This document shows positions 7,008 to 27,719 of a stretch of 64,000 bases of DNA, in pieces. The stretch's first letter is position 1. Every line of letters begins with the position of its first letter. Where the stretch lies: contig CAWAYJ010000017.1 in NCBI GenBank assembly GCA_963786235.1, forward strand, positions 245,855 to 309,854, given 5' to 3'. The translations under genes were made by a program, and so were the position numbers. The notes beneath the pieces are model-generated. The model was not told the origin of the DNA and searched no databases. It saw only the letters and a list, made by a program, of their open reading frames with translations. Source of the stretch: an uncultured Gemmatimonadales bacterium (lineage in GTDB: Bacteria > Gemmatimonadota > Gemmatimonadetes > Longimicrobiales > RSA9).

Positions 7008-9728
7008 ATGTTCGCTCCGATCGCTCGCGCGGCCCCGCTGCTCGCGCTGATGGCTCTTCCGTTCCCGGCCCGCGCCCAGCAGGCGCGCGACCTTTCGGTC
7101 TCGACGACGGTGCCGATGGCGAGCGCGGCCCCACGGACGTCCGCCATCGCCATCGATGGCCGGCTGGACGAGGCGTGCTGGCAGCAGGCCGTCCCGGCCA
7201 CGGGATTCCGGCAGTCGCAGCCGGACGAGGGTGCGCCGGCGTCGCTCCCCATCGAAGTCCGGATTCTGTTCGACGACCAGGCGCTCTACATCGGCGCGCG
7301 CATGAGCGAGCCGGGGGGCGTGGTGGCGCCGCTCGCCCGGCGCGACCAGCTGCTGGACGCGAGCGGCGACAACGGCTCGTTCAACTCGCTGACCACGGAC
7401 AAGCTGATCGTCCGGCTCGACCCGTACCACAACCACCTGGACGACGCCTGGTTCGAGGTGAATCCGGCAGGCGTCCGAGGCGATCAGTTCAACGGCGACC
7501 CGTCGTGGGACCCGATCTGGGATGCGGCCACGCACGTGGACTCGCTGGGCTGGACCGCCGAGCTGCGCATCCCGTTCAGCCAGCTCCGCTTCTCGCAGGA
7601 CCCGGAACAGAGCTGGGGTCTCCAGATCTGGCGCTACGTGGATCGGCTGAACGAGCAGGACATGTGGTCGTTCCGGCGCAGGAACGAGCCGAGCGGGCCG
7701 GCCTTCTTCGGCGATCTCGATGGTCTGGCCATTCCCGGCCGGCCTCGCCAGCTCGAGGTCCTGCCCTACGTGGTGACCGCCAGCCGGTTCGATCGCGCCG
7801 CGCCGGCCGACCCGTACAACGACAACCGCGAGATGCGCTTCAGCGCGGGCGCGGACCTCAAGGTCCTGCTCACATCGAACCTGACGCTCGATGCCACGCT
7901 CAACCCCGACTTCGGCCAGGTCGAGGTCGACCCGGCAACACTCAATCTCAGCGCGTTCGAGACGTACTATGACGAGAAGCGCCCGTTCTTCATCGCCGGC
8001 GCGAGCGCGTTCCGCTTCGGCGGCATGCGCTGCATGTTCTGCAACAACTCGTCCAGCCTGAGCGCCTTCTACTCGCGCCGCATCGGCCGGCCGCCGCAGC
8101 TGAACGGCTGGGTTTCCGACAACGCGGAGTACGTCGACGCGCCGGAGAACACGTCCATCCTCGGGGCGGCCAAGATCACCGGCCGGACCGGGAACGGCTA
8201 CACGGTCGCGCTGCTCGACGCCGTCACCGGCCGTGAGGAGGCCCGCTACCTCGGCACCGCTGGCGCGGCCGAGCGCACGCAGGTCGTGGAGCCGCTGAGC
8301 AACTACTTCGTCGGCCGGGTAAAGAAGGAGTTCCGCAACGCCAGCACGCTCGGCGGCATCCTGACCTCGACCACACGCCAGCTCGGCGATTCCGTCGTGA
8401 GCGCGCAACTCCGCAGCCACGCCGAGGCCGGCGGCATCGACTGGCGCCACACGTGGGGTGGGCGCGAGTACTCGTGGATGGGAAGTGCGCTGGTGTCCAG
8501 CGTCTCCGGTTCGCCCGCCGCGACCCTGCTCACGCAGCAATCGAGCGCGCACTACTTCCAGCGGCCGGACCGGTCCGTGCACGGGGACGGGCTGTTCGAC
8601 GCGCGCTACGATCCGACCGCCACGTCGCTCCGCGGATACGGGCTGTTCACGCGCGTGGGCAAGGACAACGGCACGCTGCTGTGGGAGGCCATGTCGAACG
8701 TCCGCAGCCCCGGCTTCGAGGTCAACGACCTCGCTTTCCTCAGCCGCGCCGACTACGCCTGGTTCAACGGCAACATCGGCGGCAACTGGACTGTGCCGAC
8801 CCGCTGGTACCGGAGCATCTTCACCAGCATCGGCGGCGCCACCGAGGTCAACTACGACGGCGACCGCACGCGGGCCGCGCTGCAGACGTTCTACGGCATG
8901 GAGCTGCCCAACTACTGGAACATCCGGCTGATGGGGATCCACGACGCGCCGGCCTTCGACGACCGACTCACGCGCGGCGGACCCGTCGTCAAGCGCACGG
9001 GTTACGACGTCGCCAGCCTGGAGGTCTCCACGGATGCGCGCGCCTCGGCGGTCTGGGACGTCATGGTGCAGGCCTCGCGCGGCGTCGGCGATGACACGCG
9101 TTCGCTCACGATCCGCCCCGGCGTCGCGCTCAAGCCGGCGGCCAACATCTTCATCCAGCTCTCGCCGAGCTACTCGCGCAATCAGTCCTCGGAGCAGTAC
9201 GTCACGACCGTTGCCGATCCCACGGCGAGCGCGTTCGACGGCAATCGCTACGTCTTCGGCTACATCACGACGAAGACGGTCTCGCTGGACACCCGCGTCA
9301 ACTGGACGTTCACGCCGGACCTCACGCTGCAGCTGTTCGCGCAGCCGTTCATCGCGAGCGGTGACTACGCCTCGTTCCGCGAGTTCGCCGCGCCGCGCAC
9401 GCTCGACAAGCTCGTCTACGGACGCGAGGCCGGCACGATCTCGTACGACGAGGCGTCGTCCACGTACCGGGTGGATCCGGACGCGAGCGGACCGGCACGA
9501 CCATTCACGTTCGACAATCCCGACTTCACAACCAGCGCGTTGCGCGGGACCGCCGTGCTGCGCTGGGAGTACCGGCCCGGCTCGACGCTGTTCTTCGTCT
9601 GGACCCAGCAACGCGCGGGTGACGATCCCGTCGGCACCTTCGACTTCGGACGGGCGCGCACGGCGATCTTCCGGCAGCGGCCGCTGAACGTGTTCCAGGT
9701 CAAGGCGACATACTGGTTCGGGCGCTGA
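7008..9728 (+). CDS. DUF5916 / CBM9-like domain protein (large secreted beta-rich protein)
   Basis: Signal peptide ...PFPARAQQ. The N-terminal segment IDGRLDEACWQQAVPATGFRQSQPDEGAP...ILFDDQALYIGARM is typical of CBM9-like/DUF5916 proteins, followed by a long beta-rich C-terminal region. Confidence 0.75.
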   Translation: MFAPIARAAPLLALMALPFPARAQQARDLSVSTTVPMASAAPRTSAIAIDGRLDEACWQQAVPATGFRQSQPDEGAPASLPIEVRILFDDQALYIGARMSEPGGVVAPLARRDQLLDASGDNGSFNSLTTDKLIVRLDPYHNHLDDAWFEVNPAGVRGDQFNGDPSWDPIWDAATHVDSLGWTAELRIPFSQLRFSQDPEQSWGLQIWRYVDRLNEQDMWSFRRRNEPSGPAFFGDLDGLAIPGRPRQLEVLPYVVTASRFDRAAPADPYNDNREMRFSAGADLKVLLTSNLTLDATLNPDFGQVEVDPATLNLSAFETYYDEKRPFFIAGASAFRFGGMRCMFCNNSSSLSAFYSRRIGRPPQLNGWVSDNAEYVDAPENTSILGAAKITGRTGNGYTVALLDAVTGREEARYLGTAGAAERTQVVEPLSNYFVGRVKKEFRNASTLGGILTSTTRQLGDSVVSAQLRSHAEAGGIDWRHTWGGREYSWMGSALVSSVSGSPAATLLTQQSSAHYFQRPDRSVHGDGLFDARYDPTATSLRGYGLFTRVGKDNGTLLWEAMSNVRSPGFEVNDLAFLSRADYAWFNGNIGGNWTVPTRWYRSIFTSIGGATEVNYDGDRTRAALQTFYGMELPNYWNIRLMGIHDAPAFDDRLTRGGPVVKRTGYDVASLEVSTDARASAVWDVMVQASRGVGDDTRSLTIRPGVALKPAANIFIQLSPSYSRNQSSEQYVTTVADPTASAFDGNRYVFGYITTKTVSLDTRVNWTFTPDLTLQLFAQPFIASGDYASFREFAAPRTLDKLVYGREAGTISYDEASSTYRVDPDASGPARPFTFDNPDFTTSALRGTAVLRWEYRPGSTLFFVWTQQRAGDDPVGTFDFGRARTAIFRQRPLNVFQVKATYWFGR

Positions 9729-9789
9729 GCGCGGCACCTCCCCGCTCCGGGACCTCGGCCATGATCATCATGGTATCATGATCTGATTA

Positions 9790-9818
9790 TTGATTTTAGA
9801 TCATAAACGGCTTATGCT
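9790..9818 (+). promoter_or_regulatory. Sigma70-like promoter TTGATT-N17-TATGCT, ending 6 nt before the ATG at 9825 (copy A)
   Basis: The hexamers and 17-nt spacer were read directly. The same element occurs at 14347..14375. Confidence 0.4.
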
Positions 9819-9824
9819 AGTTGC

Positions 9825-10088
9825 ATGAAGGACGTCAAGCGATACCTGGCGCAGATCGGCTCCCGGGGCGGCCGCAAGAGCCGGCGGACCCTGGACCCCG
9901 AGACAGCCCGGACGATGGTGCGGGTGCGAGAGGCGCGACGGGCGTTTCGTCGCTTTCGGACGATGTGCTTCTGGTCGTGCCGGCCGGATCTGGAGATCGG
10001 CGTCGATGACGTTGCCTGGGTTGCGGAGCAGCTGATGAAGCATGGCAACCGGGACGCCTGGAACGCGGGGGTCCGGCTGTGCCGTTGA
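9825..10088 (+). CDS. Small putative antitoxin-like protein upstream of the degraded AbiEii copy
   Basis: The 87-aa ORF is identical in sequence to 14382..14645. It has a basic N-terminus, IGSRGGRKSRRTLDPETARTMVRVREARR. Confidence 0.5.
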   Translation: MKDVKRYLAQIGSRGGRKSRRTLDPETARTMVRVREARRAFRRFRTMCFWSCRPDLEIGVDDVAWVAEQLMKHGNRDAWNAGVRLCR

Positions 10089-10659
10089 CGGATTTCCAGC
10101 GGGCGTTGCTCGCGGACCTCGCCGCGAGCGCGACGGGCGACCGTTATCTCGCGGGCGGCGCCGCACTGCACTTTGCGCCGAACACGACGCGCTACAGCGA
10201 CGACCTCGACTTCTTCCACGACTCCGAAGCCCGCGTGGCCTCGGCCTTCGCGGCCGACCGCGAGCAGCTCGGGCGGGCCGGCTACGCCGTGGACGTCGAG
10301 CTGAGCCTGCCCGGGCTCATTCGAGCGACCCGGGGTTGACGCCGCTTTCGCTGCTCGAGCTGCTCGAGCGGAGGGGCCGGTATCGGCCCGAGGACTTCGC
10401 CCGGCTGAATCTCGTCGAGCCGTTCGACCTGAAGCGGAGCCGGGAGACGTGGCTCGCGGCGCTGACGGAGGCGGAGGCGTTCGTACGCGAGCGGCCGCAG
10501 GAAGAGTACGGCTGTCTGTACTATTCCATGCGCATGCGCCGGTTCGTCGTGCCACGCGCCAATGCGAGCCTTGCGGCACAGGAGATCGTGCCCCATTTCG
10601 GTGCCCCCGGCGGGGTGGTGCCTCGCATGGCGGACGCCCGCGTCGAGGGCGTTGGCTGA
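10079..10659 (+). pseudogene. AbiEii/AbiGii-family nucleotidyltransferase toxin, with internal deletion and frameshift
   Basis: The N-terminal 86 aa match 14636..15454 and then hit a stop (..LIRATRG*). The C-terminal part (DPGLTPLSLLELLERRGRY...) continues in another frame (track ORF 10042..10659). About 80 codons present in copy B are missing. Confidence 0.75.
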
Positions 10660-10671
10660 AGTCAGCTGCAA

Positions 10672-11180
10672 TCTGAGAAGGACGGCTGGTACTGGCTGTT
10701 CTTCGGCGCCAACGACATCCAGAACGACGAGCAGGTCGGCGGGATCGGAGTGGCGCGCGCGCGTTCATCGGCGGGTCCGTTCGAGGACTGGCTGGAGAAG
10801 CCGCTCATCGACAGGTTCCACAACGGCGCGCAGCCGATCGACCAGATAGTGTTCCGTGACGCGGACGGCGCCTGGTGGATCGTCTACGGTGGCTGGCGGC
10901 ATTGCAACATCGCGCGGCTGAACGACGACTTCACCGGCTTCGTCCCGTTCCCGATGGCAGCACGTTCAGGGAGATCACGACCGAGGGCTACGTCGAGGGC
11001 GCGTTCATGCTGCTGAAGGACGGCAGGTACCATTTCATGTGGTCCGAAGGCGGCTGGACCGGCCCGGACTACGCGGTCGCGTACGAGATCGGCGGCTCGC
11101 GGTTCGGACCCTTCGAGCGGATCGCCAGGATCCTGCAGCAGGATCCCACGGTGGCGACGGGCGCCGGTCACCACTTCGTG
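10672..11180 (+). pseudogene. GH43 glycoside hydrolase fragment, 5'-deleted and frameshifted
   Basis: Track ORFs 10750..11016 and 10875..11249 together reproduce the middle of the GH43 gene at 15502..16983 (GPFEDWLEKPLI..., YVEGAFMLLKDGRYHFMWSEGGWTGPDYAVAY) in two frames. The N-terminal catalytic part is absent. Confidence 0.75.
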
Positions 11181-11206
11181 GCATCCTGTGCGCCATCCGC
11201 CCGGCG

Positions 11207-12316
11207 TCAGCGAATGAGCCGCAGAGTCAGGATCTGGACGGACATGTAGCCATCAGCGTCTTCATGGATTGCCGTGAGTCGACCGTCGTCCAGGAATGCC
11301 TGAGCAACCGAGTTGGGCAGGGACAGGCGCTGGTGGACAATCACTTCCCCTGTTGATGGATCCAGCACACTAATGATCGCGTCAAAGCTGGCGGCGAGCC
11401 GCGCCGGACTGAAGTAGTCCCGAGGCAGGGGGGATCCGGGTTCGACGGGGCGGAATGGATCCGGTTTGGAAGGATCCTGCAGTACCGTCGCCACCCATAG
11501 CAGCCCGGTAGCGGAATCCTGCCAGAGTGATCGCGCCCGTGTCAGAGGCTCAGCCGACTCCGATTTGGCAAACACGCCTCCCAGATGGCGGGCCCAGCCC
11601 GGATCCCATTTCAACGTGCTTTGGTGGCGACCATCCAGACTCCACAGCGAGAACTCCATCGGTGAATCAACCAACCAGACCTCCGACAGACTCCTGGCAG
11701 TGGCCACGTCCGTAATGCCCGGCGAAGTCGTGATGCCGTCACCGAGGGCCACGACAAAACGCCCGGAATGAAGCTCATAGACGCGAATTTCGTGACGGTA
11801 ACTTCCCTCCGCTTGCCGCAGCACTTCCGGTACCGCCACCAAGCTGTCGCCGACGGCCGTGATATCAGCGGGTGATGAAGGAATACCGCGGACCACCCGT
11901 TGAAAGTGCCCAGCCGGATCGAAAACATGGATCGCGCCACGGAGATCCTGGATCAGGATGTCACCGGATCGTGTCGTCGCGACCTTCATCGCCTGAGAAA
12001 GCTCCCCGGGGCCATTGCCCGACCGACCCAAGGTTCCCAACAGGACGCCGGCGGAGTCATAGGTGAGCGCGCCCGCCGTCGGCATGAACGGAGATACGAC
12101 GTAGAATTCCCCGCTACCTCCAGCCGCAACATTGCTCAACCCCGCTATGCCGACGCTGTCCGAGCGCGAACCGAGAATCACGCGGCTACGGACCCTGACT
12201 TCGCACGTTCCACACGATGGCACTCCCGACACGCGTATGGCCACGGGCAACTGAGCGGCAAGGCTTCCAGCCGATAGAACTAGCAGGCCGACAGCCTTGA
12301 AGGCTGCATCCATCAT
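11207..12316 (-). CDS. NHL-like 6-bladed beta-propeller protein, secreted (paralog 1 of 9)
   Basis: Signal MMDAAFKAVGLLVLSAGSLAAQ and the GRSGNGPGEL motif. The C-terminal strand ..SVQILTLRLIR is shared with the paralogs. Its start overlaps the stop of 12313..12837 as ATGA. Confidence 0.75.
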   Translation of the reverse strand: MMDAAFKAVGLLVLSAGSLAAQLPVAIRVSGVPSCGTCEVRVRSRVILGSRSDSVGIAGLSNVAAGGSGEFYVVSPFMPTAGALTYDSAGVLLGTLGRSGNGPGELSQAMKVATTRSGDILIQDLRGAIHVFDPAGHFQRVVRGIPSSPADITAVGDSLVAVPEVLRQAEGSYRHEIRVYELHSGRFVVALGDGITTSPGITDVATARSLSEVWLVDSPMEFSLWSLDGRHQSTLKWDPGWARHLGGVFAKSESAEPLTRARSLWQDSATGLLWVATVLQDPSKPDPFRPVEPGSPLPRDYFSPARLAASFDAIISVLDPSTGEVIVHQRLSLPNSVAQAFLDDGRLTAIHEDADGYMSVQILTLRLIR

Positions 12317-12837
12317 TCGCGAATCCACTCGGCCGCTGCCCGTTGTGCCAATGTCTGTCCCAACCACCTGGATACATGCCGATCAAGGTCGATCTGGACG
12401 GTGGCACCTCCGCAGGTACGTAGGTCCAGCAGTGCGCGCGCCTCATCGAAATCCGCTCGACCATCCTCGACATACGTGGCAAGAGCAACGATATCGCCAC
12501 CCTTGACGGCGGACGACACTTCCGCCAGCGTTTGCCCGCAGTTCGCGGCCGGACAGTTTCCTTCGTGCGGCACCAGAGGATCATAGCAGTAATTCTCGCT
12601 GGCGTCGCACACTCGGCAGCCGGGACTCCGGGATGGCTCGTCGCAACCGTCCTCGCCGTGCCACCAGTGCGCCGGTCTGCCGAAGTAGTAGCCCTCAGAA
12701 CAATTCGCACAGACCGAGTAGCCTGGCTCGCGCCCCAGCACCTGCTGGGCATGAACTCTGTTGGCGCCGCAGACCAGGACTGGGACCAGCGGCGCGAGGG
12801 AGACGAGTGTACGCTTGACTGGGTGCATCATTCTCAC
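12313..12837 (-). CDS. Secreted Cys/His-rich protein, family member A
   Basis: Signal ...VCGANRVHAQQ. Motifs: CANC, HWWHGEDGC, CRVC. The C-terminal domain has a single Cys (LDLRTCGGATVQIDLD). The architecture matches 30007, 53784 and 54514. Confidence 0.65.
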   Translation of the reverse strand: MRMMHPVKRTLVSLAPLVPVLVCGANRVHAQQVLGREPGYSVCANCSEGYYFGRPAHWWHGEDGCDEPSRSPGCRVCDASENYCYDPLVPHEGNCPAANCGQTLAEVSSAVKGGDIVALATYVEDGRADFDEARALLDLRTCGGATVQIDLDRHVSRWLGQTLAQRAAAEWIRE

Positions 12838-13042
12838 CTCCTGTGAAGGCCGTCTGGCGGAAGCCGAACGCGAAGCGCAGCCAGGTGTCCCGGTACTCCT
12901 TGACGCGCTCAGACCCGATGCGACGGATCCAATTTACGCCCCGGTGCGGCCATCTCCAAAGGCGAATGCGACAGATGCTCCGGCAAACGCGACATCCTCT
13001 GGCTCGCTGAACGAGCTGGGGCGACGCCGGGAAAGGCTGTCG

Positions 13043-13834
13043 TCACCAACGTGGCCGCATCAGCGCAGCGAGCCCCTCGGCAAGGCTGGTGCGGCCAACC
13101 AGCGCGGGAGACAACTGCCGCCTCCCGTGACTGGATTGTCGGAGGAGGCGCGCCGAGTCGGCGCCCGGACATGCGCCGATCAGCCGGAGCGCGGTACCCT
13201 TTAGCATCTGCGGGTCCGCGTCCGCATGGTTGCCCAGTGCGGCCCAGGACGATGCGTCGGGGAACGCGTCCAGAGCCCACAGCAGTACCATGGCATCCAG
13301 GAAGAACCTGGGTGTTATCCCGGACGCGAAATCTCGTGCGAACCACCGCTCGAGCGTCCGGACGGTCGTGGCTACGGCTCGAGCCCACGCCGCAACCGTG
13401 CGTATCGGTGGATCTGTGCCGGCCGCCCCGAGCAGAGCCGCCGTCGTTCGTTTCGAACAGACCACACTACGTCGGATGAAGCGGGCCATGCGGCTCCGGA
13501 GGCTGTCCCACGGTGCTTGCACGGCCTTCGTCAATTCGGCACGCGCGTGGCGAAACCACACGATCGCGTCGGCGAGGTTGGGTGCCACGATCGCGTTCTC
13601 GCCCTCCAACCTCGTGACCAGCACGAAACGCGTCCATGGATGGGCGCTCCGCAAGGCGCGCAGCTCGGGAGCGCCCGGCGCCTCGGCCAGCCATTCCTGC
13701 ACGGCCACGGCGGTATCAGCCCGGCGAACGCTCTTCGCGAACGCCGGCCACTTCTCGTGAAACTCCGCCGCAACTCCGATTGCCGGCTCGACCAGGTCTC
13801 TGAACCTCGGCGGACAGTACACTGCGACTCGCAT
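13043..13834 (-). CDS. Putative transcriptional regulator: receiver-like N-domain plus AraC-like HTH
   Basis: MRVAVYCPPRF... is a paralog of 28862, 61864 and (C-terminal half only) 51864. The C-terminal segment IRTVAAWARAVATTVRTLERWFARDFASGITPRFFLDAMVLLWAL resembles the AraC HTH_18 domain. Confidence 0.6.
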   Translation of the reverse strand: MRVAVYCPPRFRDLVEPAIGVAAEFHEKWPAFAKSVRRADTAVAVQEWLAEAPGAPELRALRSAHPWTRFVLVTRLEGENAIVAPNLADAIVWFRHARAELTKAVQAPWDSLRSRMARFIRRSVVCSKRTTAALLGAAGTDPPIRTVAAWARAVATTVRTLERWFARDFASGITPRFFLDAMVLLWALDAFPDASSWAALGNHADADPQMLKGTALRLIGACPGADSARLLRQSSHGRRQLSPALVGRTSLAEGLAALMRPRW

Positions 13835-13901
13835 GATGGCCTCCGTGAGCGCAGTTCACTCGATTCACAACCACCTCCCCGAGAAATGTGGAGCCTCCGC
13901 T

Positions 13902-14285
13902 CCCACGGCGAGCGCGTTCGACGGCAATCGCTACGTCTTCGGCTACATCACGACGAAGACGGTCTCGCTGGACACCCGCGTCAACTGGACGTTCACGCCG
14001 GACCTCACGCTGCAGCTGTTCGCGCTGCCGTTCATCGCCAGCGGCGACTACTCCTCCTTCCGCGAATTCGCAGCGCCGCGCACGCTCGACAAACTCGTGT
14101 ACGGACGCGACGCCGGCATGATCTCGTACGACGACGCGGCGTCCACGTACCGGGTGGATCCGGACGCGAGCGGACCGGCACAACCATTGGGCGACTTCGA
14201 CTTCGGCCGGGCGCGCACGGCCATCTTCCGGCAGCGGCCGCTGAACGTGTTCCAGGTCAAGGCGACGTACTGGTTCGGGCGCTGA
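13902..14285 (+). pseudogene. 3' remnant of a DUF5916 gene (duplicate of the 9220..9728 region, with an internal deletion)
   Basis: It encodes PTASAFDGNRYVFGYITTKTVSLDTRVNWTFTPDLTLQLFA...NVFQVKATYWFGR, matching the C-terminus of 7008..9728. It lacks the segment RPFTFDNPDF...QQRAGDDPV and the whole N-terminus. Confidence 0.8.
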
Positions 14286-14324
14286 GCGCGGCACCTCCCC
14301 GATCCGGGACCTCGACCAGAAGAG

Positions 14325-14375
14325 TCATGATATCATGATCTCATTATTGATTTTAGATCATAAACGGCTTATGCT
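14325..14375 (+). promoter_or_regulatory. Perfect 14-bp palindrome TCATGATATCATGA plus promoter TTGATT-N17-TATGCT, immediately upstream of the ATG at 14382
   Basis: Palindrome at 14325..14338, -35-like hexamer at 14347..14352, -10-like hexamer at 14370..14375. Only 6 nt separate the -10 from the ATG and no SD is present, which suggests a leaderless transcript. Confidence 0.45.
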
Positions 14376-14381
14376 AGTGCC

Positions 14382-14645
14382 ATGAAGGACGTCAAGCGGT
14401 ACCTGGCGCAGATCGGCTCACGGGGCGGCCGCAAGAGCCGGCGGACCCTGGACCCCGAGACGGCCCGGACGATGGTGCGGGTGCGTGAGGCGCGACGGGC
14501 GTTTCGTCGCTTTCGGACGATGTGCTTCTGGTCGTGCCGGCCGGATCTGGAGATCGGCGTCGATGACGTTGCCTGGGTTGCGGAGCAACTGATGAAGCAT
14601 GGCAACCGGGACGCCTGGAACGCGGGGGTCCGGCTGTGCCGTTGA
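14382..14645 (+). CDS. Small putative antitoxin-like protein of the AbiEii module
   Basis: 87 aa with a basic N-terminal segment. It overlaps the downstream AbiEii start by 10 nt. Confidence 0.55.
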   Translation: MKDVKRYLAQIGSRGGRKSRRTLDPETARTMVRVREARRAFRRFRTMCFWSCRPDLEIGVDDVAWVAEQLMKHGNRDAWNAGVRLCR

Positions 14646-15454
14646 CGGGTTTCCAGCGGGCGTTGCTCGCGGACCTCGCCGCGAGCGCGACGGGCGACCG
14701 TTATCTCGCGGGCGGCGCCGCACTGCACTTTGCGCCGAACACGACGCGCTACAGCGACGACCTCGATTTCTTCCACGACTCCGAAGCCCGCGTGGCCTCG
14801 GCCTTCGCGGCCGACCGCGAGCAGCTCGGGCGGGCCGGCTACGCCGTGGACGTCGAGCTGAGCATGCCCGGGTTCATTCGAGCGGTCGTCCGGCGAGAAG
14901 AGCAGGCTACACGGGTGGATTGGGCGCACGACTCGGCGTGGCGGTTCATGCCGCTCGTTCGAGACCCCCTGGGCGGGTTGCTCCTCCATTCGGTTGATCT
15001 GGCGGTCAACAAGACGCTTGCGCTGGGCGGACGGGATGAGCCTCGCGATTTCGTGGACATCCTCTTCGTGCACGATCGCATACTGCGCATTTCGGCGCTC
15101 TGCTGGGCCGCTGCGGGAAAGGACCCGGGACTCACCCCGCTCTCGCTGCTCGAGCTGCTCGAGCGGAGGGGCCGGTATCGGCCCGAGGACTTCGCCCGGC
15201 TGAATCTCGTCGAGCCGTTCGACCTGAAGCGGAGCCGGGAGACGTGGCTCGCGGCGCTGACGGAGGCGGAGGCGTTCGTGCGCGAGCGGCCGCAGGAGGA
15301 GTACGGCTGCCTGTACTACTCCACGCGCTTGCGCCGGTTCGTCGTGCCACGCGCCGATCCGAGCCTTGCGGCACAGGAGATCGTGCCCCATTTCGGCGCC
15401 CCCGGCGGCGTGGTGCCTCGCATGGCGGACGCCCGCGTCGAAGGCATGGGCTGA
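14636..15454 (+). CDS. AbiEii/AbiGii-family nucleotidyltransferase toxin
   Basis: FQRALLADLAASATGDRYLAGGAALHFAPNTTRYSDDLDFFHD matches the family signature (GGTAL..R.S.DLDFF). Full length, 272 aa. Confidence 0.8.
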   Translation: MPLTGFQRALLADLAASATGDRYLAGGAALHFAPNTTRYSDDLDFFHDSEARVASAFAADREQLGRAGYAVDVELSMPGFIRAVVRREEQATRVDWAHDSAWRFMPLVRDPLGGLLLHSVDLAVNKTLALGGRDEPRDFVDILFVHDRILRISALCWAAAGKDPGLTPLSLLELLERRGRYRPEDFARLNLVEPFDLKRSRETWLAALTEAEAFVRERPQEEYGCLYYSTRLRRFVVPRADPSLAAQEIVPHFGAPGGVVPRMADARVEGMG

Positions 15455-15501
15455 AGCTGCAATCGTTCGACTCACATTGGTTCCTTTCCCGGAGATGTGT
15501 G

Positions 15502-16983
15502 ATGGGCCAACCACCGAGGATCCGCCGTGCGCTCGTCGTCTGCGTCCTCGCGCTGGTGCCGGGCGCGACCGTGCTCGCGCAGCAGAGCCGGTCCGGCAAC
15601 CCGATCCTGCCCGGCTGGTACGCGGACCCCGAGGCGCACGTCTTCGACGGCCGGTACTGGATCTTCCCGACGTACTCGGCGCGCTACGACGAGCAGACGT
15701 TCCTGGACGCGTTCTCGTCGCACGACCTGATCACGTGGACGAAGCACGAGCACGTGCTCGATGCCGCCAACGTGAAGTGGGCGCGCCGCGCGATGTGGGC
15801 GCCCTCGATCATCGAGAAGGACGGCTGGTACTACCTGTTCTTCGGCGCCAACGACATCCAGAACGACGAGCAGACCGGCGGCATCGGCGTCGCCCGCGCG
15901 CGCACGCCGGCGGGTCCATTCGAGGACTGGCTGGGCAAGCCGCTGATCGGCCAGTTCCACAACGGCGCGCAGCCGATCGACCAGATGGTGTTCCGCGACG
16001 CGGACGGCGCGTACTGGATCGTCTACGGCGGCTGGCGGCACTGCAACATTGCGCGGCTGAACGACGACTTCACGGGCCTCGTCCCGTTCCCCGACGGCAC
16101 CACGTTCAAGGAGATCACGCCCGACGGGTACGTCGAGGGCGCGTTCATGCTGATCCGGGATGGGAAGTACTACTTCATGTGGTCCGAGGGCGGCTGGACG
16201 GGACCCGACTACGCGGTGGCGTACGCGATCGGCGACTCGCCGTTCGGCCCGTTTCAGCGGATCGGCAAGATCCTGCAGCAGGATCCCGCGGTGGCGACGG
16301 GCGCCGGTCACCACTCCGTGCTGCATTCGCCGGCGTCGGATCGCTGGTACATCGTCTACCACCGGCGGCCGCTCGGCGAGACCGACCGGAACCACCGCGC
16401 CGTGAGCATCGACCGGCTCGAGTTCGACGAGAACGGCCGGATCCGGCCGGTGAAGATCACGTTCGATGGCGTCGCCGCGGACCCGCTTCCCGGCGTGCGC
16501 CAGGACACCCGACAGGAGGCACGCATGGGCGCGATCGGTCTGGAAGACCTCGCCGGTGAATGGACGGGCACCAACAAGCTGTGGGTCATGCCCGGCGAGC
16601 CCGTCCGCGAATCCGATGCCTCCGCATCGGCGAGCCTGGTCGGACAGGGCCAGTTCCTCATGGTGCGCTACACTTGGGCCGAGGGCGGCAAGCCGCAGGA
16701 CGGCACGCTGCTGATCGGGACGGCGTCCGGCGAGAAGCCGGTGGACATCGTGTGGCTCGACTCCTGGCACATGCGCAACGACGTGATGCGGCTCCGCGTG
16801 GAACCGGCCGGCGACGCGCTGCTGAACGTGCTCGGCAGCTACCCGGCGCCGACCGGACCCGATTGGGGCTGGCGGATCGTGCTCCGGCCCGAGTCCCGTG
16901 ACGCGTTCCGCATGCTGATGTACAACATCAAGCCGGGTGGGCCGGACGTGCTGGCGGTGGAAGCGGCGTACACGCGGCGCTGA
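15502..16983 (+). CDS. Glycoside hydrolase family 43 with a fused C-terminal domain of about 150 aa (possibly DUF1579-like)
   Basis: Signal ...ATVLAQQ. GH43 motifs: NPILPGWYADPE, WAPSIIEKDGWYYLFF, YVEGAFM..DGKYYFMWSEGGW. The C-terminal domain begins at the in-frame ATG 16525, which is preceded by AGGAGG. Confidence 0.85.
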   Translation: MGQPPRIRRALVVCVLALVPGATVLAQQSRSGNPILPGWYADPEAHVFDGRYWIFPTYSARYDEQTFLDAFSSHDLITWTKHEHVLDAANVKWARRAMWAPSIIEKDGWYYLFFGANDIQNDEQTGGIGVARARTPAGPFEDWLGKPLIGQFHNGAQPIDQMVFRDADGAYWIVYGGWRHCNIARLNDDFTGLVPFPDGTTFKEITPDGYVEGAFMLIRDGKYYFMWSEGGWTGPDYAVAYAIGDSPFGPFQRIGKILQQDPAVATGAGHHSVLHSPASDRWYIVYHRRPLGETDRNHRAVSIDRLEFDENGRIRPVKITFDGVAADPLPGVRQDTRQEARMGAIGLEDLAGEWTGTNKLWVMPGEPVRESDASASASLVGQGQFLMVRYTWAEGGKPQDGTLLIGTASGEKPVDIVWLDSWHMRNDVMRLRVEPAGDALLNVLGSYPAPTGPDWGWRIVLRPESRDAFRMLMYNIKPGGPDVLAVEAAYTRR

Positions 16984-17115: not shown

Positions 17116-20100
17116 ATGATCGATAGAGGTCGAACCATGATTGGCTTGCCGCGCATTTCCCGTACCCCGTCTTCCCGATTCCTCGTCGTCTTCGCACTGC
17201 TCGCGCTGCCGGCCGGCTCCGCGCCGCTCGTCGCGCAGCAGATGGCGCCCGACACGCTGAAATCGTCCGACGTGTCCGCCCTGAAATTCCGCAACCTGGG
17301 CGGCGCGTTCATGAGCGGCCGCATCGTCGAGGTCGCCGTCGATCCGACGGACAGGGCGACGTGGTACGTCGCATCCGCGTCGGGCGGCGTGTGGAAGACG
17401 ACGAACGCGGGCAACACGTTCGATCCGATCTTCGACCATTACGGCTCCTACTCGATCGGCACAGTGGCCATCGATCCGAACAATCCGGCCACCATCTGGG
17501 TCGGCACGGGCGAGAACAACTCGCAGCGCTCCGTCGCGTACGGCGACGGTATCTACAAGTCGCTCGACGGCGGCCGCTCGTTCGAGAACATGGGCCTGAA
17601 GACGTCGGAGCACATCGCACGTATCCTCGTCGATCCGCGGAGCTCCGACCGCGTGTTCGTCGCGGCGCAGGGCCCGCTCTGGAGCGCGGGCGGCGAGCGC
17701 GGCGTGTACCGCACGGAGGACGGCGGGCAGACGTGGGAGCAGGTGCTCGCGGTCGATGAGAATACCGGTGCCACGGACCTGCTCATGGACCCGCGCAACC
17801 CGGACGTGCTCTACGCCGCGACGTACCAGCGGCGCCGGCACGTGTGGACGCTGATCGACGGCGGTCCCGGCTCCGGCATCTGGAAGAGCACGGACGGCGG
17901 CGACACGTGGCGCAAGATCGAGTCCGGCATCCCGGGCGGCGACAAGGGCCGGATCGGTCTCGCGCTCGCGCCCTCGGACCCGGACATCCTGTACGCCATC
18001 ATCGAGCTGCCCGAGTACTCCGGCGGGTTCTACCGTTCGATGAACGGCGGCGAGAGCTGGGAGCGGCGGAGCGACCACGTGTCCGGCAGCCCGCAGTACT
18101 ACAACGAGATTTACGTGGACCTGAAGAATCCGGACGTGGTCTACTCGCTCGACACCTACACGATGATCACGGAGGACGGCGGGCGCACGTTCTCGCCGCT
18201 GGGCGAGACCGACAAGCACGTGGACAACCACGCGCTCTGGATCGATCCCGACGACGGCAACCACCTCCTCGAGGGCTGCGACGGCGGCCTCTACGAGACG
18301 TGGGACCGCGGCGCGACCTGGCGCTTCTTCACCAACCTGCCGCTCGCCCAGTACTACAAGACGGCGGTCAGCTACGGCGAGCCGTTCTTCTACGTGTACG
18401 GCGGCACGCAGGACAACGCGACGCACGGCGTGCCGAGCGGCACCATGAACACGCACGGGATCCGGAACTCCGACTGGTTCACCACCGTGTTCGGCGACGG
18501 CTTCGGCCCCGCGGTCGACCCGAGCAATCCCGACATCGTGTACTCGGAGTGGCAGTACGGCGGCCTGGTCCGCTACGACCGGAAGTCGGGCGAGGCGGTG
18601 GACATCAAGCCGCAGGAGAGCGCGGACGGCCCGCCGCTCGTCTGGAACTGGGACTCGCCCATCCTGATCTCGCCGCACAACCCGTCGCGGCTCTACTTCG
18701 GCGCGCAGATCCTCTTCCGGAGCGACGACCGCGGCGACTCGTGGACCGCGATCTCGCCCGACCTCACGCGTGGCCTCGATCGCAACAAGCTGGAGATCAT
18801 GGGCCGGGTCTGGAGCGTGGACGCCGTCGCCAAGAACGCGTCCACCTCGATCTACGGCAACCTCACGACGGTGAGCGAATCGCCCGTCGTCGCGAACCTG
18901 CTCTACGCCGGCACCGACGACGGCCTCATCCAGGTGAGCGAGGACGGCGGCGCGAACTGGCGGAAGATCGAGCAGTTCCCCGGCATCCCGGACCGCACCT
19001 ACGTCAACGACATCGAGGCGTCGCAGACCAATGCCAACACCGTGTACGCCGCGTTCAACAACCACAAGATGGGCGACTTCAAGCCCTATCTGCTGGTGAG
19101 CCGGGACCGCGGCCGGACCTGGCGCTCGATCGCCGGCAACCTGCCGGAGCGCGGCTCCGTCTACACGGTCGTGCAGGACGACGAGGTGCCGAGTCTCATG
19201 TTCGCCGGCACCGAGTTCGGCGTGTTCGTCACTCGCGATGAAGGCAACAGCTGGACGAAGATGGGCGGTGGCCTGCCCACCATCGCGATTCGCGACCTCG
19301 TGATCCAGCGCGACCAGGACGCGCTCGTCGCCGCATCGTTCGGCCGCGGCTTCTGGATCCTCGACGACTACGCGCCGCTTCGCACCGTCGGCAAGACCGC
19401 ACAGGACGCCGAAGCGCATTTCTTCCCGATCAAGCCGGCGAAGCTCTACGTCCGCGTCACGCCGCTCGGCGTGACCGGCAAGGCGTTCCAGGGCTCCGAT
19501 TTCCACACGGACCCGAACCCCACGTTCGGCGCCGTATTCACGTACAACCTGAAGACAGCGCTGCAGACGAAGAAGGCGGAGCGGCAGGCGGAGGAGAAGA
19601 AGCTCGAGAAGGACGGCAAGGACACGCCCTACCCGTCGTGGGACGAGCTCAAGGCCGAGGACCGCGAGGAGGAGCCGGCCATCGTGCTCACGGTGCGGGA
19701 TCAGGATGGCGACGTGGTGCGACGCATCACCGGTCCGGTTTCCGCCGGCGTGCACACCGTCTCGTGGGACCTCACGTATCCGGGCTTCACGCCGGTCAAC
19801 GCAAACACCGGCTCCGACGGCAACGGCCCCAGCGTCGTGCCCGGCCGCTTCACGGTCGAGCTTGCGCGCCGCGTCGACGGCGAGTTCGAGACGCTGACCG
19901 ACCGTGTGCCCTTCCAGGTCGAGGCCATCGGCGTGCACACGCTGCCGGTGCCGGACCGTGCGCAAACGCTCGCGTTCTACCAGCGAGCGGGCGACCTGCA
20001 GCGTCGCGTGATGGGCATGAACGCCGCCCTCGGCGAGGCGATGCAGAGCATCCAGGCGATGAAGAACGCCGCCATGCGCGATCCCGCGGGTACGCCCGAG

Positions 20101-20424
20101 CTCCGCCAGCAGGCGCGCACGCTCGAGCTGCGCATGATGGACCTGCAGCAGATCCTGACCGGCGATCCCACGAAGGCGAGGCGCCAGGAAGCGTCGATGC
20201 CCGGCGTGATCGGCCGCATCCAGACCGCGATGGGCGACATGGGCGCGACGCACGGGCCGAGCGCCACGCAGCGCCAGCAGCTCGACATCGCGGAGCAGGC
20301 GTTCAGCGCCGCGTTGCCCGGATTCCGGCAGATGATCGACCAGGACGTGCCCGCGCTCGAGCGGCAGTTCGACGCGGCCGGCATCCGCTGGACAACCGGG
20401 AGGGGTGTGCCGGGCGGGGACTGA
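17116..20424 (+). CDS. BNR/Asp-box repeat, sortilin/VPS10-like beta-propeller protein
   Basis: Signal ...PLVAQQ. At least nine SxDxGxTW-type Asp-boxes ([66 protein letters not shown], and others). 1102 aa. Confidence 0.8.
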
Positions 20425-20495: not shown

Positions 20496-21065
20496 ATGGA
20501 GAATGATATCATGGCGACGAAGGCGTCAGGACGGTTCGTGCTGCGGCTGGAGCCGGGGTTGCATGCGGCGTTGCGGCGGGCGGCGGCGGCGGCGGGCGTG
20601 TCGCTCAACGAGTACTGCGCGCGGAAGCTGTCGGCGCCGGGTTCGGATGCGACGGGCGCGGCGGGTGCGATCGTGGCACGTGCGGCGGAAACGGTCGGGG
20701 ACGGCCTTGTCGGGGTTGTGGCGTTCGGCTCGTGGGCGCGCGGCGAGGAGCGGTCGGACTCGGACCTGGACATCCTGATCGTGGTGGATCGGCGCGTGAA
20801 GTTGAATCGTTCGGTCTACCGCGGCTGGGATTCCGGGGACCTGGAGGTGGGCGGGCTGCGGGTGGAGCCGCACATCGTGCATCTGCCGGAGCCATCGGAT
20901 CGGCCGTCGTCGTTGTGGCTGGAGGTGGCGGTGGACGGTGTGGTGCTGTTCGAGCGAGGGCTGGAGGTTTCGCGGCATCTGGCGCGGGTCCGGTCGTTCA
21001 TCGCGGAGGGTGGGGCGCGGCGGAAGTGGTCGCACGGTCAGCCGTACTGGGTCGAGGCGGCGTGA
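20496..21065 (+). CDS. RHH/HicB-like domain fused to a minimal nucleotidyltransferase (MNT) domain
   Basis: The N-terminus GRFVLRLEPGLHAALRRAAAAAGVSLNEYC resembles HicB/Arc-like antitoxins. It is followed by the MNT motif GSWARGEERSDSDLDILIVVD. The start may instead be ATG 20511. Confidence 0.7.
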   Translation: MENDIMATKASGRFVLRLEPGLHAALRRAAAAAGVSLNEYCARKLSAPGSDATGAAGAIVARAAETVGDGLVGVVAFGSWARGEERSDSDLDILIVVDRRVKLNRSVYRGWDSGDLEVGGLRVEPHIVHLPEPSDRPSSLWLEVAVDGVVLFERGLEVSRHLARVRSFIAEGGARRKWSHGQPYWVEAA

Positions 21066-24953: not shown

Positions 24954-24975
24954 TGCTACGAGGCGACATGGAGAG

Positions 24976-27715: not shown

Positions 27716-27719
27716 AGCA

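Follow-up and report, generated by a model that had tools for sequence, protein, structure and literature searches.

A direct repeat around an orphan operon in a Gemmatimonadota genome, very probably of recombinational origin and mosaic ancestry

A 64,000-nucleotide stretch of DNA from a soil Gemmatimonadota genome (the window) carries, on either side of a three-gene operon, two copies of a segment made up of the 3' end of a DUF5916 gene, an AbiEii-type toxin-antitoxin (TA) pair and the 5' part of a GH43 gene. How did the segment come to stand on both sides of this operon, and how did one intact DUF5916 gene and one intact GH43 gene survive? An earlier note had proposed an insertion- or recombination-associated duplication of DUF5916-TA-GH43, followed by reciprocal loss. 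The data presented here indicate that, very probably, the repeat is real, arose by recombination, has a mosaic ancestry and bears no signature of a mobile element.

A repeat finder, BLASTN and global alignment all recovered the ~2-kb segmental duplication that the earlier note had described, and the pairwise alignment it had suggested as a check gave 93.6% identity over 1821 columns, with 117 mismatches, between copy A (9214-11180) and copy B (13897-16320). This similarity is far above chance level and is distributed over five collinear blocks:

A 9214-9505 = B 13897-14188: repeat block 1, 94.9% identity
A 9638-10326 = B 14195-14883: repeat block 2, 96.7% identity
A 10327-10659 = B 15122-15454: repeat block 3, 94.6% identity
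A 10674-10949 = B 15813-16088: repeat block 4, 89.1% identity
A 10950-11180 = B 16090-16320: repeat block 5, 86.6% identity

The edges are sharp: homology starts abruptly at 9213/9214 (A) and 13896/13897 (B) and stops abruptly at 11180/11181 (A) and 16320/16321 (B), where copy B runs unbroken into the remainder of GH43. We consider the direct duplication of the DUF5916 3' end, the TA pair and the GH43 5' part to be genuine, with the following genes in and around the copies:

7008-9728, plus strand: intact DUF5916 gene, 906 aa
9214-11180, plus strand: copy A, 1967 bp; DUF5916 3' end, intact antitoxin-like gene, AbiEii pseudogene, internal GH43 fragment
9825-10088, plus strand: copy-A antitoxin-like gene, 87 aa, intact
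10079-10659, plus strand: copy-A AbiEii pseudogene, out-of-frame deletion at 10326/10327, ~residues 83-161 gone
10674-11180, plus strand: copy-A GH43 fragment, matching codons ~105-273 of the copy-B gene
13833-14285, plus strand: chimeric ORF, 21 new codons from the flank of the central module joined to a DUF5916 C-terminal stub of 129 codons that has lost 126 bp in frame
13897-16320, plus strand: copy B, 2424 bp; DUF5916 stub, intact TA pair, GH43 5' part
14382-15454, plus strand: copy-B TA operon, intact
15502-16983, plus strand: GH43 + DUF1579 gene, intact, 493 aa

Gene identities were assigned by Pfam profile search. The intact DUF5916 gene (PF19313, E=7.7e-62; weak CBM9-like N-terminus; GC3 of 0.92) contributes its last 515 bp to the left part of copy A. 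Within the copy-B operon, the antitoxin-like gene (14382-14645, 87 aa) overlaps by 10 bp the AbiEii nucleotidyltransferase gene (14636-15454, 272 aa), whose product matches PF08843 (27.5 bits against a cut-off of 22.5) as well as PADLOC AbiEii models and has over 3000 homologs (the best ~74-81% identical), Gemmatimonadota accounting for many of the named ones. The antitoxin-like protein, for which Pfam, NCBIfam and PADLOC gave no family match, is 100% identical between the copies by tblastn, with 5 synonymous and 0 nonsynonymous differences in the genes. The intact GH43 gene, whose first ~273 codons lie inside copy B, encodes a protein with 93% amino acid identity to P0001; its domains (PF04616, E=2e-49, and PF07617) were scored on the ORF 15244-16983, the called gene (in the ENA contig introduced below) being 15502-16983.

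The indels that the earlier note listed for each copy proved correct, with small refinements to their lengths and positions. Copy B is missing ~126 bp in frame (A 9506-9631). In copy A, the AbiEii gene has lost 238 bp (B 14884-15121), or 79 codons and one further base; this deletion is itself out of frame and so causes the frameshift in the pseudogene, both remaining parts of which are free of stop codons. The copy-A GH43 fragment shows a net loss of 345 bp, in which a ~348-bp deletion (B 15465-15812) is partly offset by a small insertion; it takes away the upstream region, the start codon and ~104 codons. A C4 run at 10949/10950 has in addition lost 1 bp. This fragment also lacks everything 3' of 11180, a loss absent from the earlier note. 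Among contigs of related strains, L085 and L088 carry the 126-bp segment, as does copy A, and L088 carries the 238 bp, as does copy B; as outgroups carry these and the GH43 5' sequences, all three large indels are deletions. At positions at least 90% conserved, the copy-A GH43 fragment has 9 radical changes in 130, compared with 2 in 171 for the other dead pieces (1/53 in the DUF5916 stub and 1/118 in the AbiEii pseudogene; pooled p=0.011), and thus bears real pseudogene damage. The stub carries a Q>L change at a position invariant in 62/62 orthologs, and the chimeric ORF that contains it is probably non-functional.

Complementary decay, as first envisaged, does not describe this pattern well: the DUF5916 stub of copy B and the 3'-truncated GH43 of copy A end exactly at the repeat boundaries. 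On the simplest reading, both were incomplete from the moment the junctions formed, and the 126-bp and 345-bp deletions struck fragments that were already dead. Decay in the strict sense holds for the TA pair, which alone was duplicated whole and of which only the copy-A toxin decayed; later loss of DUF5916 and GH43 does not.

The space between the copies is filled exactly by the operon, module M, and the alignment edges bear out the minus-strand three-gene module that the earlier note had placed there:

11177-11188: junction J1 (11180/11181), GH43 fragment to M
11181-13896, minus strand: module M, 2716 bp, complete three-gene operon
11207-12367, minus strand: secreted beta-propeller-like orphan, 386-aa ORF (368-369 aa as called in other assemblies)
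12313-12837, minus strand: Cys-rich secreted orphan protein, 172-174 aa, hydrophobic N-terminus, many Cys
13043-13834, minus strand: putative regulator, 263 aa, receiver-like beta/alpha N-terminus and helical C-terminus
13890-13903: junction J2 (13896/13897), M upstream flank to DUF5916 codon 736

M has a GC content of ~0.61-0.68, mostly below the 0.64-0.71 of the flanking copies, and its margins extend just 26 bp past the last stop codon and 62 bp before the first start codon. No Pfam family was found for its three ORFs. The propeller protein gave a weak NHL-type match to ScyF (E=0.005) and 3 matches among 5.8 billion proteins, namely its own cluster, one at 41% identity and another, at 24%, whose annotation is 6-bladed beta-propeller; paralogs with 25-27% identity lie in the window at 50.5-56.2 kb. 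Searches of Pfam, NCBIfam and PADLOC yielded nothing meaningful for the Cys-rich protein (a single NCBIfam match scored 12 bits where the cut-off is 586), and the window contains no paralog of it. The regulator belongs to a small family (91 representatives among 1.84 billion proteins) with 4 copies in the window, the paralogs lying at 61864-62649 (68%), 28862-29566 (44%) and 51870-52304 (43%). Its C-terminus probably contains an HTH, to judge from its sequence; distant family members give sub-threshold HTH matches, and the AF2 model is of low confidence (pLDDT 56).

The earlier note had suggested inspecting the junctions for repeats, and inspection revealed convincing microhomology at neither. 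J1 sits 6 bp 3' of a 24-nt quasi-palindrome (11151-11174), and 7 of the first 8 nt on its M side are reverse-complementary to 11139-11146, an inverted repeat that could be due to chance. J2, which was found in the window and in ENA contig_11097 only, shows no repeat and no clear microhomology. No short target duplication was found, inverted repeats of at least 30 nt are absent from 7-19 kb, and a scan of 20 ORFs in 21-21065 and 24976-38199 turned up no member of an integrase or transposase family. The origin of the locus is therefore recombination-associated.

Comparison with related genomes, also suggested by the earlier note, was productive, and yielded a different ancestral state from the DUF5916-TA-GH43 that it had assumed. 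In L084/L085 and L086, DUF5916 is followed directly by GH43, with no TA pair and no M, and L088 carries a single copy of DUF5916 end, antitoxin, intact AbiEii and GH43. Neither GH43 nor a TA pair lies downstream of DUF5916 in any of 80 orthologous loci in Gemmatimonadota.

With the relatives known from contigs of 2-4.6 kb and small counts per block, divergence between A and B is patchy (0-13%), and dS ranges from 0.016 in the N-terminal part of AbiEii to 0.31 in GH43, the latter exceeding that of the stub (0.11; p=0.0075). Their dN/dS is 0.19-0.27; at least ~0.5 would be expected had one partner been dead throughout. In the stub A and B differ by 5.1%, against 12.7% from L086, and in the TA pair by 1.7-4.4%, against 4-8% from L088, a pattern in which the two copies appear as sisters. 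GH43 differs: the copy-A fragment is ~12% from every allele (10.9-13.4% from copy B), and copy B is 3.9-6.2% from L084. Site patterns in this gene (B=L≠A at 47, A=L≠B at 13 and A=B≠L at 11) and dS values (0.308 for A-B, 0.293 for A-L and 0.146 for B-L) follow suit, and the maximum-likelihood change point falls at 10647, with divergence of 4.1% before and 12.3% after. For the same strain pair, dS is 0.55 between DUF5916 (copy A) and L085 and 0.12 between GH43 (copy B) and L084 (p=6e-7), a contrast that shows a recombination breakpoint between the two genes; as an L084-type donor has no TA pair, the homologous tract could not extend left of GH43, in agreement with where the change point lies. 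On the branch leading to the copy-A GH43, 20 changes are synonymous and 21 nonsynonymous (p=3e-4 to 9e-3 for departure from neutrality), and there is no stop codon. In the stub, polarized with L086, 7 changes are A-derived and 8 B-derived (a B dead since the split would be expected to give 3.3:1; p=0.037), dN/dS is 0.25, and divergence is itself patchy, 0.8% and then 8.6% (p=0.002). Low dN/dS, uneven dS and a copy-B GH43 nearer to other strains therefore require, beyond duplication and decay, either inter-strain recombination or an origin from two alleles.

Our preferred history, held tentatively and with somewhat less than even confidence, is that one illegitimate recombination in a D-TA-G haplotype (D, DUF5916; G, GH43) took up an orphan operon, and that deletions and replacement of the functional GH43 by another strain's allele came afterwards. 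D and G were originally adjacent in this Gemmatimonadota lineage, as in L084-L086, and an AbiEii-type TA pair then entered their spacer to give the D-TA-G order that survives in L088. A single illegitimate, non-site-specific recombination or template switch in such a chromosome may have joined GH43 codon ~273 to M, a foreign, lower-GC 2.7-kb operon, and M to DUF5916 codon 736, giving D-[P_A]-M-[P_B]-rest of G, with P denoting the D 3' end, TA and the G 5' part. The left GH43 and the right DUF5916 would have been truncated from the outset, and intact D and G survive because each crosses the outer edge of one copy uninterrupted. The 238-bp (A toxin), 345-bp net (A GH43), 126-bp (B stub) and 1-bp deletions came later, the copy-A antitoxin remaining intact with synonymous changes only. 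Finally, the functional right-hand GH43 would have been overwritten through homologous recombination by an allele of another strain, probably along with the BNR gene downstream; the tract would end on the left at the TA|GH43 boundary. Within the TA core, some tracts may in addition have been made uniform by gene conversion. It follows from this history that the copy-A GH43 is an old diverged allele with pseudogene damage, that the copy-B GH43 clusters with foreign alleles, and that divergence steps from ~4% to ~12% at ~10647. Against it, neither junction has convincing microhomology, the propeller gene of M is essentially unique, and the balanced polarity, dN/dS and patchiness of the stub fit a two-allele origin with gene conversion at least as well.

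That two-allele origin, in which the copies were never identical in this genome, is quite possible and almost as likely as the favoured account. Here M would first have inserted into the GH43 of a resident D-TA-G, killing that gene in what is now copy A, and an intact D-TA-G-BNR segment would then have been acquired from a related strain, either by homology-facilitated illegitimate recombination (HFIR), with a homologous downstream end and an upstream end inside DUF5916 joined illegitimately beside M, or by a Campbell-type route, in which a circle with M and P integrated by a single crossover. A working GH43 would thus have been restored and the old copy left as wreckage. The A-B dN/dS in every block resembles that between functional alleles of different strains (B-L 0.19-0.33), the stub polarity is balanced (7:8), and the alternation of ~0-1% and 7-13% tracts resembles diverged alleles partly homogenised by gene conversion. 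The copy-B DUF5916 end equals L088 with 0 differences in 90 bp, at which copy A differs at 3 sites. Extra decay of the copy-A GH43 would be expected if it had died before copy B arrived, although its comparison with the stub alone is not significant (p=0.29). Transformation can give merodiploids with a cassette-inactivated and an intact gene copy (PMC3784515), a precedent for such an origin. However, the donor must have had DUF5916 and TA close to the resident (2-5%) but GH43 12% away, the model requires either a pre-formed M+P circle or a pair of illegitimate joins made at different times, the divergence step exactly at the TA|GH43 boundary is left without a reason, and M within a single-copy GH43 was found in no strain, the protein index giving only the P-M-P form.

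An old, larger tandem duplication is improbable. The whole of D-TA-G would have doubled, both units diverging under selection while functional, until a single event put M in place of the 3' part of the first G and the 5' part of the second D, so that the "complementary loss" would be one deletion-insertion across the inter-copy junction. This accounts for the low dN/dS, the stop-free truncated pieces and the intact gene at each outer edge. Tandem duplications are unstable, however, and a ~10-kb repeat would have had to persist without collapse for a dS of 0.1-0.3; none of the five related haplotype contigs has two units. TA phylogenies place the A/B split after the split from L088, against an old event, and a copy-B GH43 nearer to other strains beside sister TA and stub is unexplained unless inter-strain recombination is added.

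We give still less credence to the model of the earlier note, in which a 2-kb segment was duplicated in place, together with the insert or because of it, and then underwent only neutral decay and reciprocal loss without any contribution from other strains. The structure fits, the deletions and frameshift are real, and neutral-type divergence outside GH43 (~0.08-0.14) could reflect one age, but the GH43 data contradict it unless synonymous rates differ threefold between adjacent genes, as the dS contrast with the stub shows. Were 0.31 taken as a date, the dead copy-A GH43 branch should have gathered ~60 nonsynonymous changes, rather than the 21 seen; its synonymous fraction is 20/41, against 0.23-0.30 under neutrality, and GH43 A and B have no derived states in common against L084 (11 vs 13 sites).

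The P-M-P layout recurs in ENA ERZ25039500 contig_11097 (657 kb, 99.7% identical), from which the window is separated by 63 scattered SNPs and indels over 20 kb, none of them inside M, and a Logan contig from another sequencing run (SRR28023568_370183, L089) equals window 10535-12394 with 1 mismatch and no gaps, covering J1, the 345-bp deletion and the GH43 frameshift. An assembly artefact, either two strain haplotypes stitched in series or a mis-expanded repeat, is thus unlikely and has the slightest chance of the readings considered. In its favour, the sequence comes from a metagenome assembly of a population in which several haplotypes co-occur, and L086 is apparently from the same study as the 657-kb contig (judged from neighbouring accession numbers only). 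Against it, two contigs 0.3% apart have the layout in common, and over 1860 bp the contig from the other run repeats J1 and the copy-A lesions with a single mismatch. As M is joined to repeat sequence on both sides, real molecules must contain both junctions, and 6% divergence with three large indels makes the copies easily told apart in assembly.

Collectively, these data suggest that the locus is a structural rearrangement, a small merodiploid, rather than a functional element or a new kind of element, and that it represents a genuine but ordinary scar of illegitimate and inter-strain recombination.

Two direct copies of a roughly 2-kb segment, recovered alike by a repeat finder, BLASTN and global alignment, flank a central module (M, 11181-13896), with copy A at 9214-11180 and copy B at 13897-16320. 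When aligned pairwise, as the earlier note had proposed, the copies resolved into five collinear same-strand blocks comprising 1821 aligned columns with 117 mismatches (93.6% identity overall), and the similarity stops abruptly at both outer repeat edges. The segmental duplication around the module that the earlier note described is borne out by these direct, sharply bounded copies, whose similarity is not low, though their divergence is patchy (0-12.6%). The GC content of the window is high, at about 0.58-0.72.

Collinear blocks of the repeat (copy A; copy B; identity)
Block 1: 9214-9505; 13897-14188; 94.9%
Block 2: 9638-10326; 14195-14883; 96.7%
Block 3: 10327-10659; 15122-15454; 94.6%
Block 4: 10674-10949; 15813-16088; 89.1%
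Block 5: 10950-11180; 16090-16320; 86.6%

The Pfam assignments of the genes concerned agree with the identities guessed from sequence (DUF5916, AbiEii and GH43), while the three ORFs of M are without a family.

7008-9728, plus strand, DUF5916 gene
14636-15454, plus strand, AbiEii toxin gene
15502-16983, plus strand, GH43+DUF1579 gene
17116-20424, Sortilin/BNR protein gene, the 3' neighbour of GH43

The repeat copies are only ~2 kb long, and the sole unit wholly contained in them is the TA pair, comprising AbiEii and an 87-aa antitoxin-like partner. In copy B, DUF5916 is a truncated 3' stub from which a further 126 bp or so is missing in frame. Copy A has lost 238 bp of AbiEii out of frame, so that the frameshift in this gene is due to the deletion itself, as well as a net 345 bp that took with it the region 5' of GH43, the start codon and some 104 codons. 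The remaining GH43 fragment has lost one base from a C4 run (10949/10950) and is without everything past 11180. Because the stub and the 3' truncation of GH43 coincide with the repeat boundaries and no unit but the TA pair lies entirely within the copies, reciprocal loss of complete genes, as previously envisaged, is not borne out.

None of 80 representative species-level genomes had GH43, the TA pair or M beside DUF5916, and such relatives are therefore uninformative on the ancestral state. The best DUF5916 orthologs, with up to 79% amino acid identity, came from Gemmatimonadales and Longimicrobiales MAGs; exact look-up of the 906-aa DUF5916 protein gave no match, probably owing to differing start calls or to the source contig being absent from the gene index. 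Strain-level relatives were traced via GH43 and AbiEii protein clusters.

Arrangements in contigs from related strains
L084/L085 (Logan): DUF5916 3' end, ~170-bp spacer, GH43, BNR; GH43 93% amino acid and 94.8% nucleotide identity to copy B
L086 (ENA): DUF5916 then GH43, without the TA pair
L088 (JGI): single copy of DUF5916 end, antitoxin, intact AbiEii, GH43
L087 (JGI 3300042191): decayed AbiEii 5' of GH43

This comparison with genomes lacking the insert, which the earlier note had called for, yielded single-copy haplotypes from which the order of arrangements could be recovered, namely D|G, then D-TA-G, then the D-TA'-G'-M-'D-TA-G of the window (D, DUF5916; G, GH43). The oldest state is accordingly DUF5916|GH43 without the TA pair (L084/L085 and L086), and the DUF5916-TA-GH43 order taken to be ancestral is a later one (L088). 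As the 126-bp, 238-bp and GH43 5' sequences are all present in outgroups, the three indels are deletions. In L087 (positions 1-352), AbiEii aligns only to 14976-15179 and 15306-15454 of copy B, with a gap of ~126 bp; the toxin gene is thus degraded there as well, and toxin loss at the GH43 locus has occurred more than once.

Divergence between the copies differs from gene to gene and from tract to tract.

A-B divergence by gene (Nei-Gojobori; ω, dN/dS)
DUF5916 stub: dS 0.114, ω 0.25
Antitoxin-like gene: 5 synonymous, 0 nonsynonymous changes
AbiEii N: dS 0.016
AbiEii C: dS 0.144, ω 0.19
GH43: dS 0.308, ω 0.27

A-B divergence along the repeat (copy A coordinates)
9214-9342: 0.8%
9343-9505: 8.6%
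9738-9837: 11%
9938-10326: 1.3%
10348-10484: 0%
10485-10659: 7.4%
10674-11149: 12.6%

A fragment dead since duplication would be expected to give an A-B ω of at least about 0.5. The maximum-likelihood change point falls at 10647, the AbiEii stop codon, with 4.1% divergence before it and 12.3% after. To its left the copies are sisters, both in the stub (A-B 5.1% vs 12.7% to L086) and in the TA core (1.7-4.4% vs 4-8% to L088), with A, B and L088 forming a trichotomy in AbiEii C. In GH43, copy A lies 10.5-13.4% from every allele, functional alleles are 0.7-9.5% apart, and copy B is closest to L084 and L087. The view of A and B as twin copies therefore applies to the stub and TA pair but not to GH43, in which the nearest partners of B are L084 and L087.

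When L084 (L) is added to the comparison, 47 GH43 sites show the pattern B=L≠A, 13 show A=L≠B and 11 show A=B≠L. These counts and the dS values (A-B 0.308, A-L 0.293, B-L 0.146) indicate that A and B have no derived state in common and that, on a synonymous clock, the separation of A is about twice as old as that between B and L084. The A branch carries 20 synonymous and 21 nonsynonymous changes with no stop in 168 codons, which does not agree with neutral change over the entire branch (p=2.7e-4 to 8.8e-3); an old in-place duplication was rejected on account of this nonsynonymous deficit. Among the 130 positions with at least 90% conservation across GH43 homologs, the A fragment has nine radical substitutions (Y>W, P>S, G>E, P>T, Y>H, A>E, P>R, G>A and S>F) and B has two; the corresponding counts in the dead stub (1/53) and the dead AbiEii pieces (1/118) are lower (pooled, p=0.011). 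About 13-15 further differences in the A fragment lie at naturally variable positions. Together these changes point to an A branch that first diverged as an ordinary allele and then went through a shorter phase as a pseudogene.

Between the window and the L084/L085 strain, dS is 0.55 in DUF5916 vs 0.12 in GH43 and 0.17 in BNR (p=6e-7), which places a recombination breakpoint between the first two of these genes in the ancestry of the strains. Over codons 1-104 of GH43 (15502-15813; signal peptide and N-terminus), dN/dS against L084 is 0.62, compared with 0.19-0.20 for the rest, indicating relaxed or diversifying evolution or a further recombination tract.

The account that we tentatively favour is a single event in a D-TA-G chromosome that would have produced the repeat-M-repeat layout, after which the copies would have suffered their deletions and the functional GH43(-BNR) of copy B would have been replaced by homologous recombination from an L084/L087-like donor. 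Such donors are without the TA pair, so the replacement tract would not extend left of GH43, and this fits the place of the change point, where the TA pair gives way to GH43.

Nearly as likely is a two-allele origin, in which M killed the resident GH43, an intact D-TA-G-BNR was captured by homology-facilitated illegitimate recombination (HFIR) or Campbell-type integration, and later gene conversion homogenised tracts of the repeat. This gives the better fit to the uniformly low ω, the balanced polarity of changes in the stub (7:8 against L086) and the heavier decay of GH43 in copy A, whereas the position of the change point speaks for later replacement. GH43 in copy B is of foreign type relative to A, and the stub and TA pair are sisters. 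A more speculative reading, which we consider doubtful, is a "rescue by merodiploidy" in an uncultivated population of soil Gemmatimonadota: an orphan secreted-protein operon knocked out GH43, a complete allele was captured from another strain, with one of its joints homologous and the other illegitimate, and the old antitoxin was kept as a selected orphan against the incoming or a neighbouring toxin. If this were true, a TA pair between two housekeeping-type genes would influence the positions at which recombination tracts stop.

An old full-length tandem duplication, cut later by M, fits worse and is improbable: none of the five related contigs carries an older, larger duplication, nor does any hold two complete D-TA-G units. 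The pure duplicate-and-decay model of the earlier note also fits worse and has very little probability. An assembly artefact is unlikely, given that the same layout is present in ENA ERZ25039500 contig_11097 (657 kb), which is 99.7% identical to the window across 20 kb and encodes the antitoxin-like protein twice, and that a 1860-bp Logan contig (SRR28023568) aligns without gaps to window 10535-12394, differing by a single mismatch and spanning the GH43-M junction, the 345-bp deletion and the homopolymer frameshift. The junction of M with the stub was seen only in the two long contigs, that of the window and contig_11097.

The 63 differences between contig_11097 and the window are scattered like strain SNPs, with five in 9214-16320 and none in M. 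Four of these five carry the paralog's base; gene conversion was rejected as a reading of them, since any new mutation at a site where A and B agree gives the same pattern. Single-base indels in contig_11097 relative to the window (687, 780, 5111, 7112, 7478, 8209-8234 and 17774) split AcrB, a TolB-like gene, DUF5916 (called at 729 aa) and BNR (238 and 872 aa), all of which are intact in the window. These are probably uncorrected sequencing errors, which calls for caution with frameshift calls in that assembly.

Both joints of M, J1 (11180/11181, GH43 fragment to M) and J2 (13896/13897, M to stub), lie inside coding sequence, and their inspection, as suggested previously, found no repeat common to the two. 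There were no inverted repeats of at least 30 nt in 7-19 kb, and those at the junctions are short and at chance level. The repeat is 2 kb long, and the M proteins are without a transposase or integrase family; no integrase family occurred among the ORFs scanned (21-21065), and no attachment repeats were found at J1 or J2. A transposon or IS insertion was rejected for want of terminal inverted repeats, a short target duplication or a transposase, and site-specific integration (integrase/att or integron cassette) for want of a recombinase and conserved end repeats. Of the insertion- or recombination-associated origin first proposed, the recombination part stands, with no transposon or integrase hallmark. 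Coding-sequence joints of this kind point instead to illegitimate recombination or template switching. J1 lies 6 bp past a 24-nt quasi-palindrome and near a GGATCCTGCAGCAGGATCC palindrome, and its first 8 nt within M repeat 11139-11146 in inverted form, with 7/8 positions agreeing. These features hint at a hairpin-associated or snap-back template switch, although the 12-nt inverted repeat that spans J1, with one mismatch, lies in a palindrome-rich stretch and may be due to chance. A promoter and terminator scan of 9-17.2 kb gave results at or below shuffle expectation.

M itself (2716 bp) contains three minus-strand ORFs and little besides, with 26 bp past the last stop and 62 bp ahead of the first start. 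No usable match to any of the three proteins came from Pfam, NCBIfam or PADLOC. The 263-aa putative regulator belongs to a small family that has four paralogs in the window; 91 family representatives occur among 1.84 billion proteins, and distant members give weak HTH matches; a structural model from the four-paralog alignment reached a pLDDT of only 56. The Cys-rich secreted protein has no relatives and the secreted propeller-like protein essentially none, and a search with the latter indicated that M is absent from JGI data at useful identity. No copy of M elsewhere turned up in the databases searched. The GC and GC3 of M are mostly lower than those of its flanks and resemble those of two lower-GC islands with paralogs in the window. 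M looks like a stray member of the island cassette family.

These islands (24437-28738 and 57396-61754) are 80-82% identical at the DNA level, and M segment 12947-13844 matches 62749-61854 in inverted orientation. Each contains a BTAD/TPR regulator (24976-27402 in the first) and a papain-like C1 peptidase (27720-28751; 60745-61767), with a homolog of the 263-aa regulator 3' of the peptidase (28862-29566, 44% amino acid identity; 61864-62649, 68%). Secreted beta-propeller ORFs at 50523-51425, 52754-53722 and 55218-56222 are 25-27% identical to the M propeller, whereas ORF 30276-31745 encodes a six-bladed propeller (Pfam DUF5128) that is not among the tblastn matches of the M propeller. All four cluster with regulator homologs (51864-52307, 28862-29566) in a repeated regulator-plus-propeller arrangement. 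Lower-GC cassettes of putative regulators and secreted propeller proteins are recurrent in the window and almost absent from databases. Directly 5' of the second island is one copy of a 729-bp duplication (39261-39989 and 56650-57377, 95% identity) that adjoins a DUF6036 nucleotidyltransferase gene (39736-40281); this duplication may represent a further TA-like module present twice. Directly 3' of BNR, at the edge of a lower-GC region, a HicB/nucleotidyltransferase fusion gene (20496-21065, plus strand; Pfam) is followed by a HEPN gene (about 21065-21484, plus strand; ENA contig annotation), forming a second TA-type (MNT-HEPN-like) pair.

The toxin of the repeated TA pair scores 27.5 bits vs a gathering cut-off of 22.5 (PF08843/DUF1814, Pfam), matches PADLOC AbiEii models (E=5e-5) and contains the motif AGGAALHF...SDDLDFF, which we read as a putative G-G...D-x-D nucleotidyltransferase signature of the polymerase-beta-type kind. 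Its family has >3000 homologs; of those with names, many belong to Gemmatimonadota, and the closest share about 74-81% identity. The 87-aa gene lies 5' of AbiEii and overlaps it by 10 bp; as it matched neither AbiEi nor any other family in Pfam, NCBIfam or PADLOC, the pair is not a canonical AbiE system, and we take it to be a Gemmatimonadota-specific variant with a putative toxin-antitoxin function. In copy A the toxin is destroyed and the antitoxin-like gene intact, leaving a putative orphan antitoxin. All five of its changes relative to copy B are synonymous (p about 0.002 under neutrality, a rough estimate from a synonymous fraction of ~0.3 and not a formal test); the orphan is apparently under purifying selection, and its retention could reflect short-term chance. 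The AT-rich spacer 5' of this gene (9770-9824 and 14327-14381) contains repeated ATCATGAT palindromes (…ATCATGATATCATGATCT…TTAGATCAT…) and is probably the operator or promoter of the TA pair. The differences between A and B are concentrated immediately 5' of this spacer, at 9758-9785.

As a worked example, the locus illustrates how five short contigs from related strains and two repeat copies let an order of events be reconstructed, from adjacent genes through TA insertion and the rearrangement around M to deletions and allelic replacement. It also illustrates how reading a bacterial repeat as "duplicate then decay" can go wrong when populations recombine. It opens no long-standing question and would leave a specialist unsurprised.

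HFIR was reportedly described by de Vries and Wackernagel in 2002 and is listed in PMC3240628; its joints typically show 3-10 bp of GC-rich microhomology, and sequence is usually replaced. As in HFIR, foreign DNA in the window is joined at arbitrary positions within genes and runs seamlessly into homologous sequence on one side, where GH43-BNR is a foreign-type allele; unlike in the usual replacement, 2 kb is duplicated, and neither joint shows convincing microhomology. Campbell-type integration proceeds by a single crossover. The window resembles its products, and merodiploids generally, in having direct chromosomal repeats around heterologous DNA and an interrupted target gene coexisting with an intact one, with no need for a site-specific recombinase. 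Transformation and recombination can give merodiploids and tandem duplications, which in pneumococcus span 100-900 kb and are bounded by IS-derived repeats (Johnston et al. 2013, PLoS Genet, PMC3784515); the window differs in its 2-kb repeat and its novel junctions in coding sequence, with no pre-existing repeat visible.

The TA pair resembles AbiE (type IV TA) in its above-threshold AbiEii toxin and small overlapping upstream gene, and differs in that the 87-aa partner lacks the AbiEi architecture of a winged-helix N-terminal and a C-terminal antitoxin domain. In Vibrio cholerae, displacement of T6SS effector genes has left arrays of orphan immunity genes (Kirchberger et al. 2017, PMC5361080). 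In a similar way, copy A has lost its toxin and keeps an intact, putatively protective partner beside a newer complete pair, although the window has one orphan only, from a TA pair and not a T6SS effector-immunity pair. In the lpl clusters of S. aureus, tandem paralogs recombine at a conserved central region (PMC2568036). DUF5916 and GH43, unlike the lpl genes, are unrelated, and the repeat boundaries are one-off illegitimate joints; like the units of those clusters, the repeat runs from the 3' part of one gene across a spacer into the 5' part of the following gene and does not consist of whole ORFs. Set beside these systems, the window locus is another instance of an already known kind of rearrangement.
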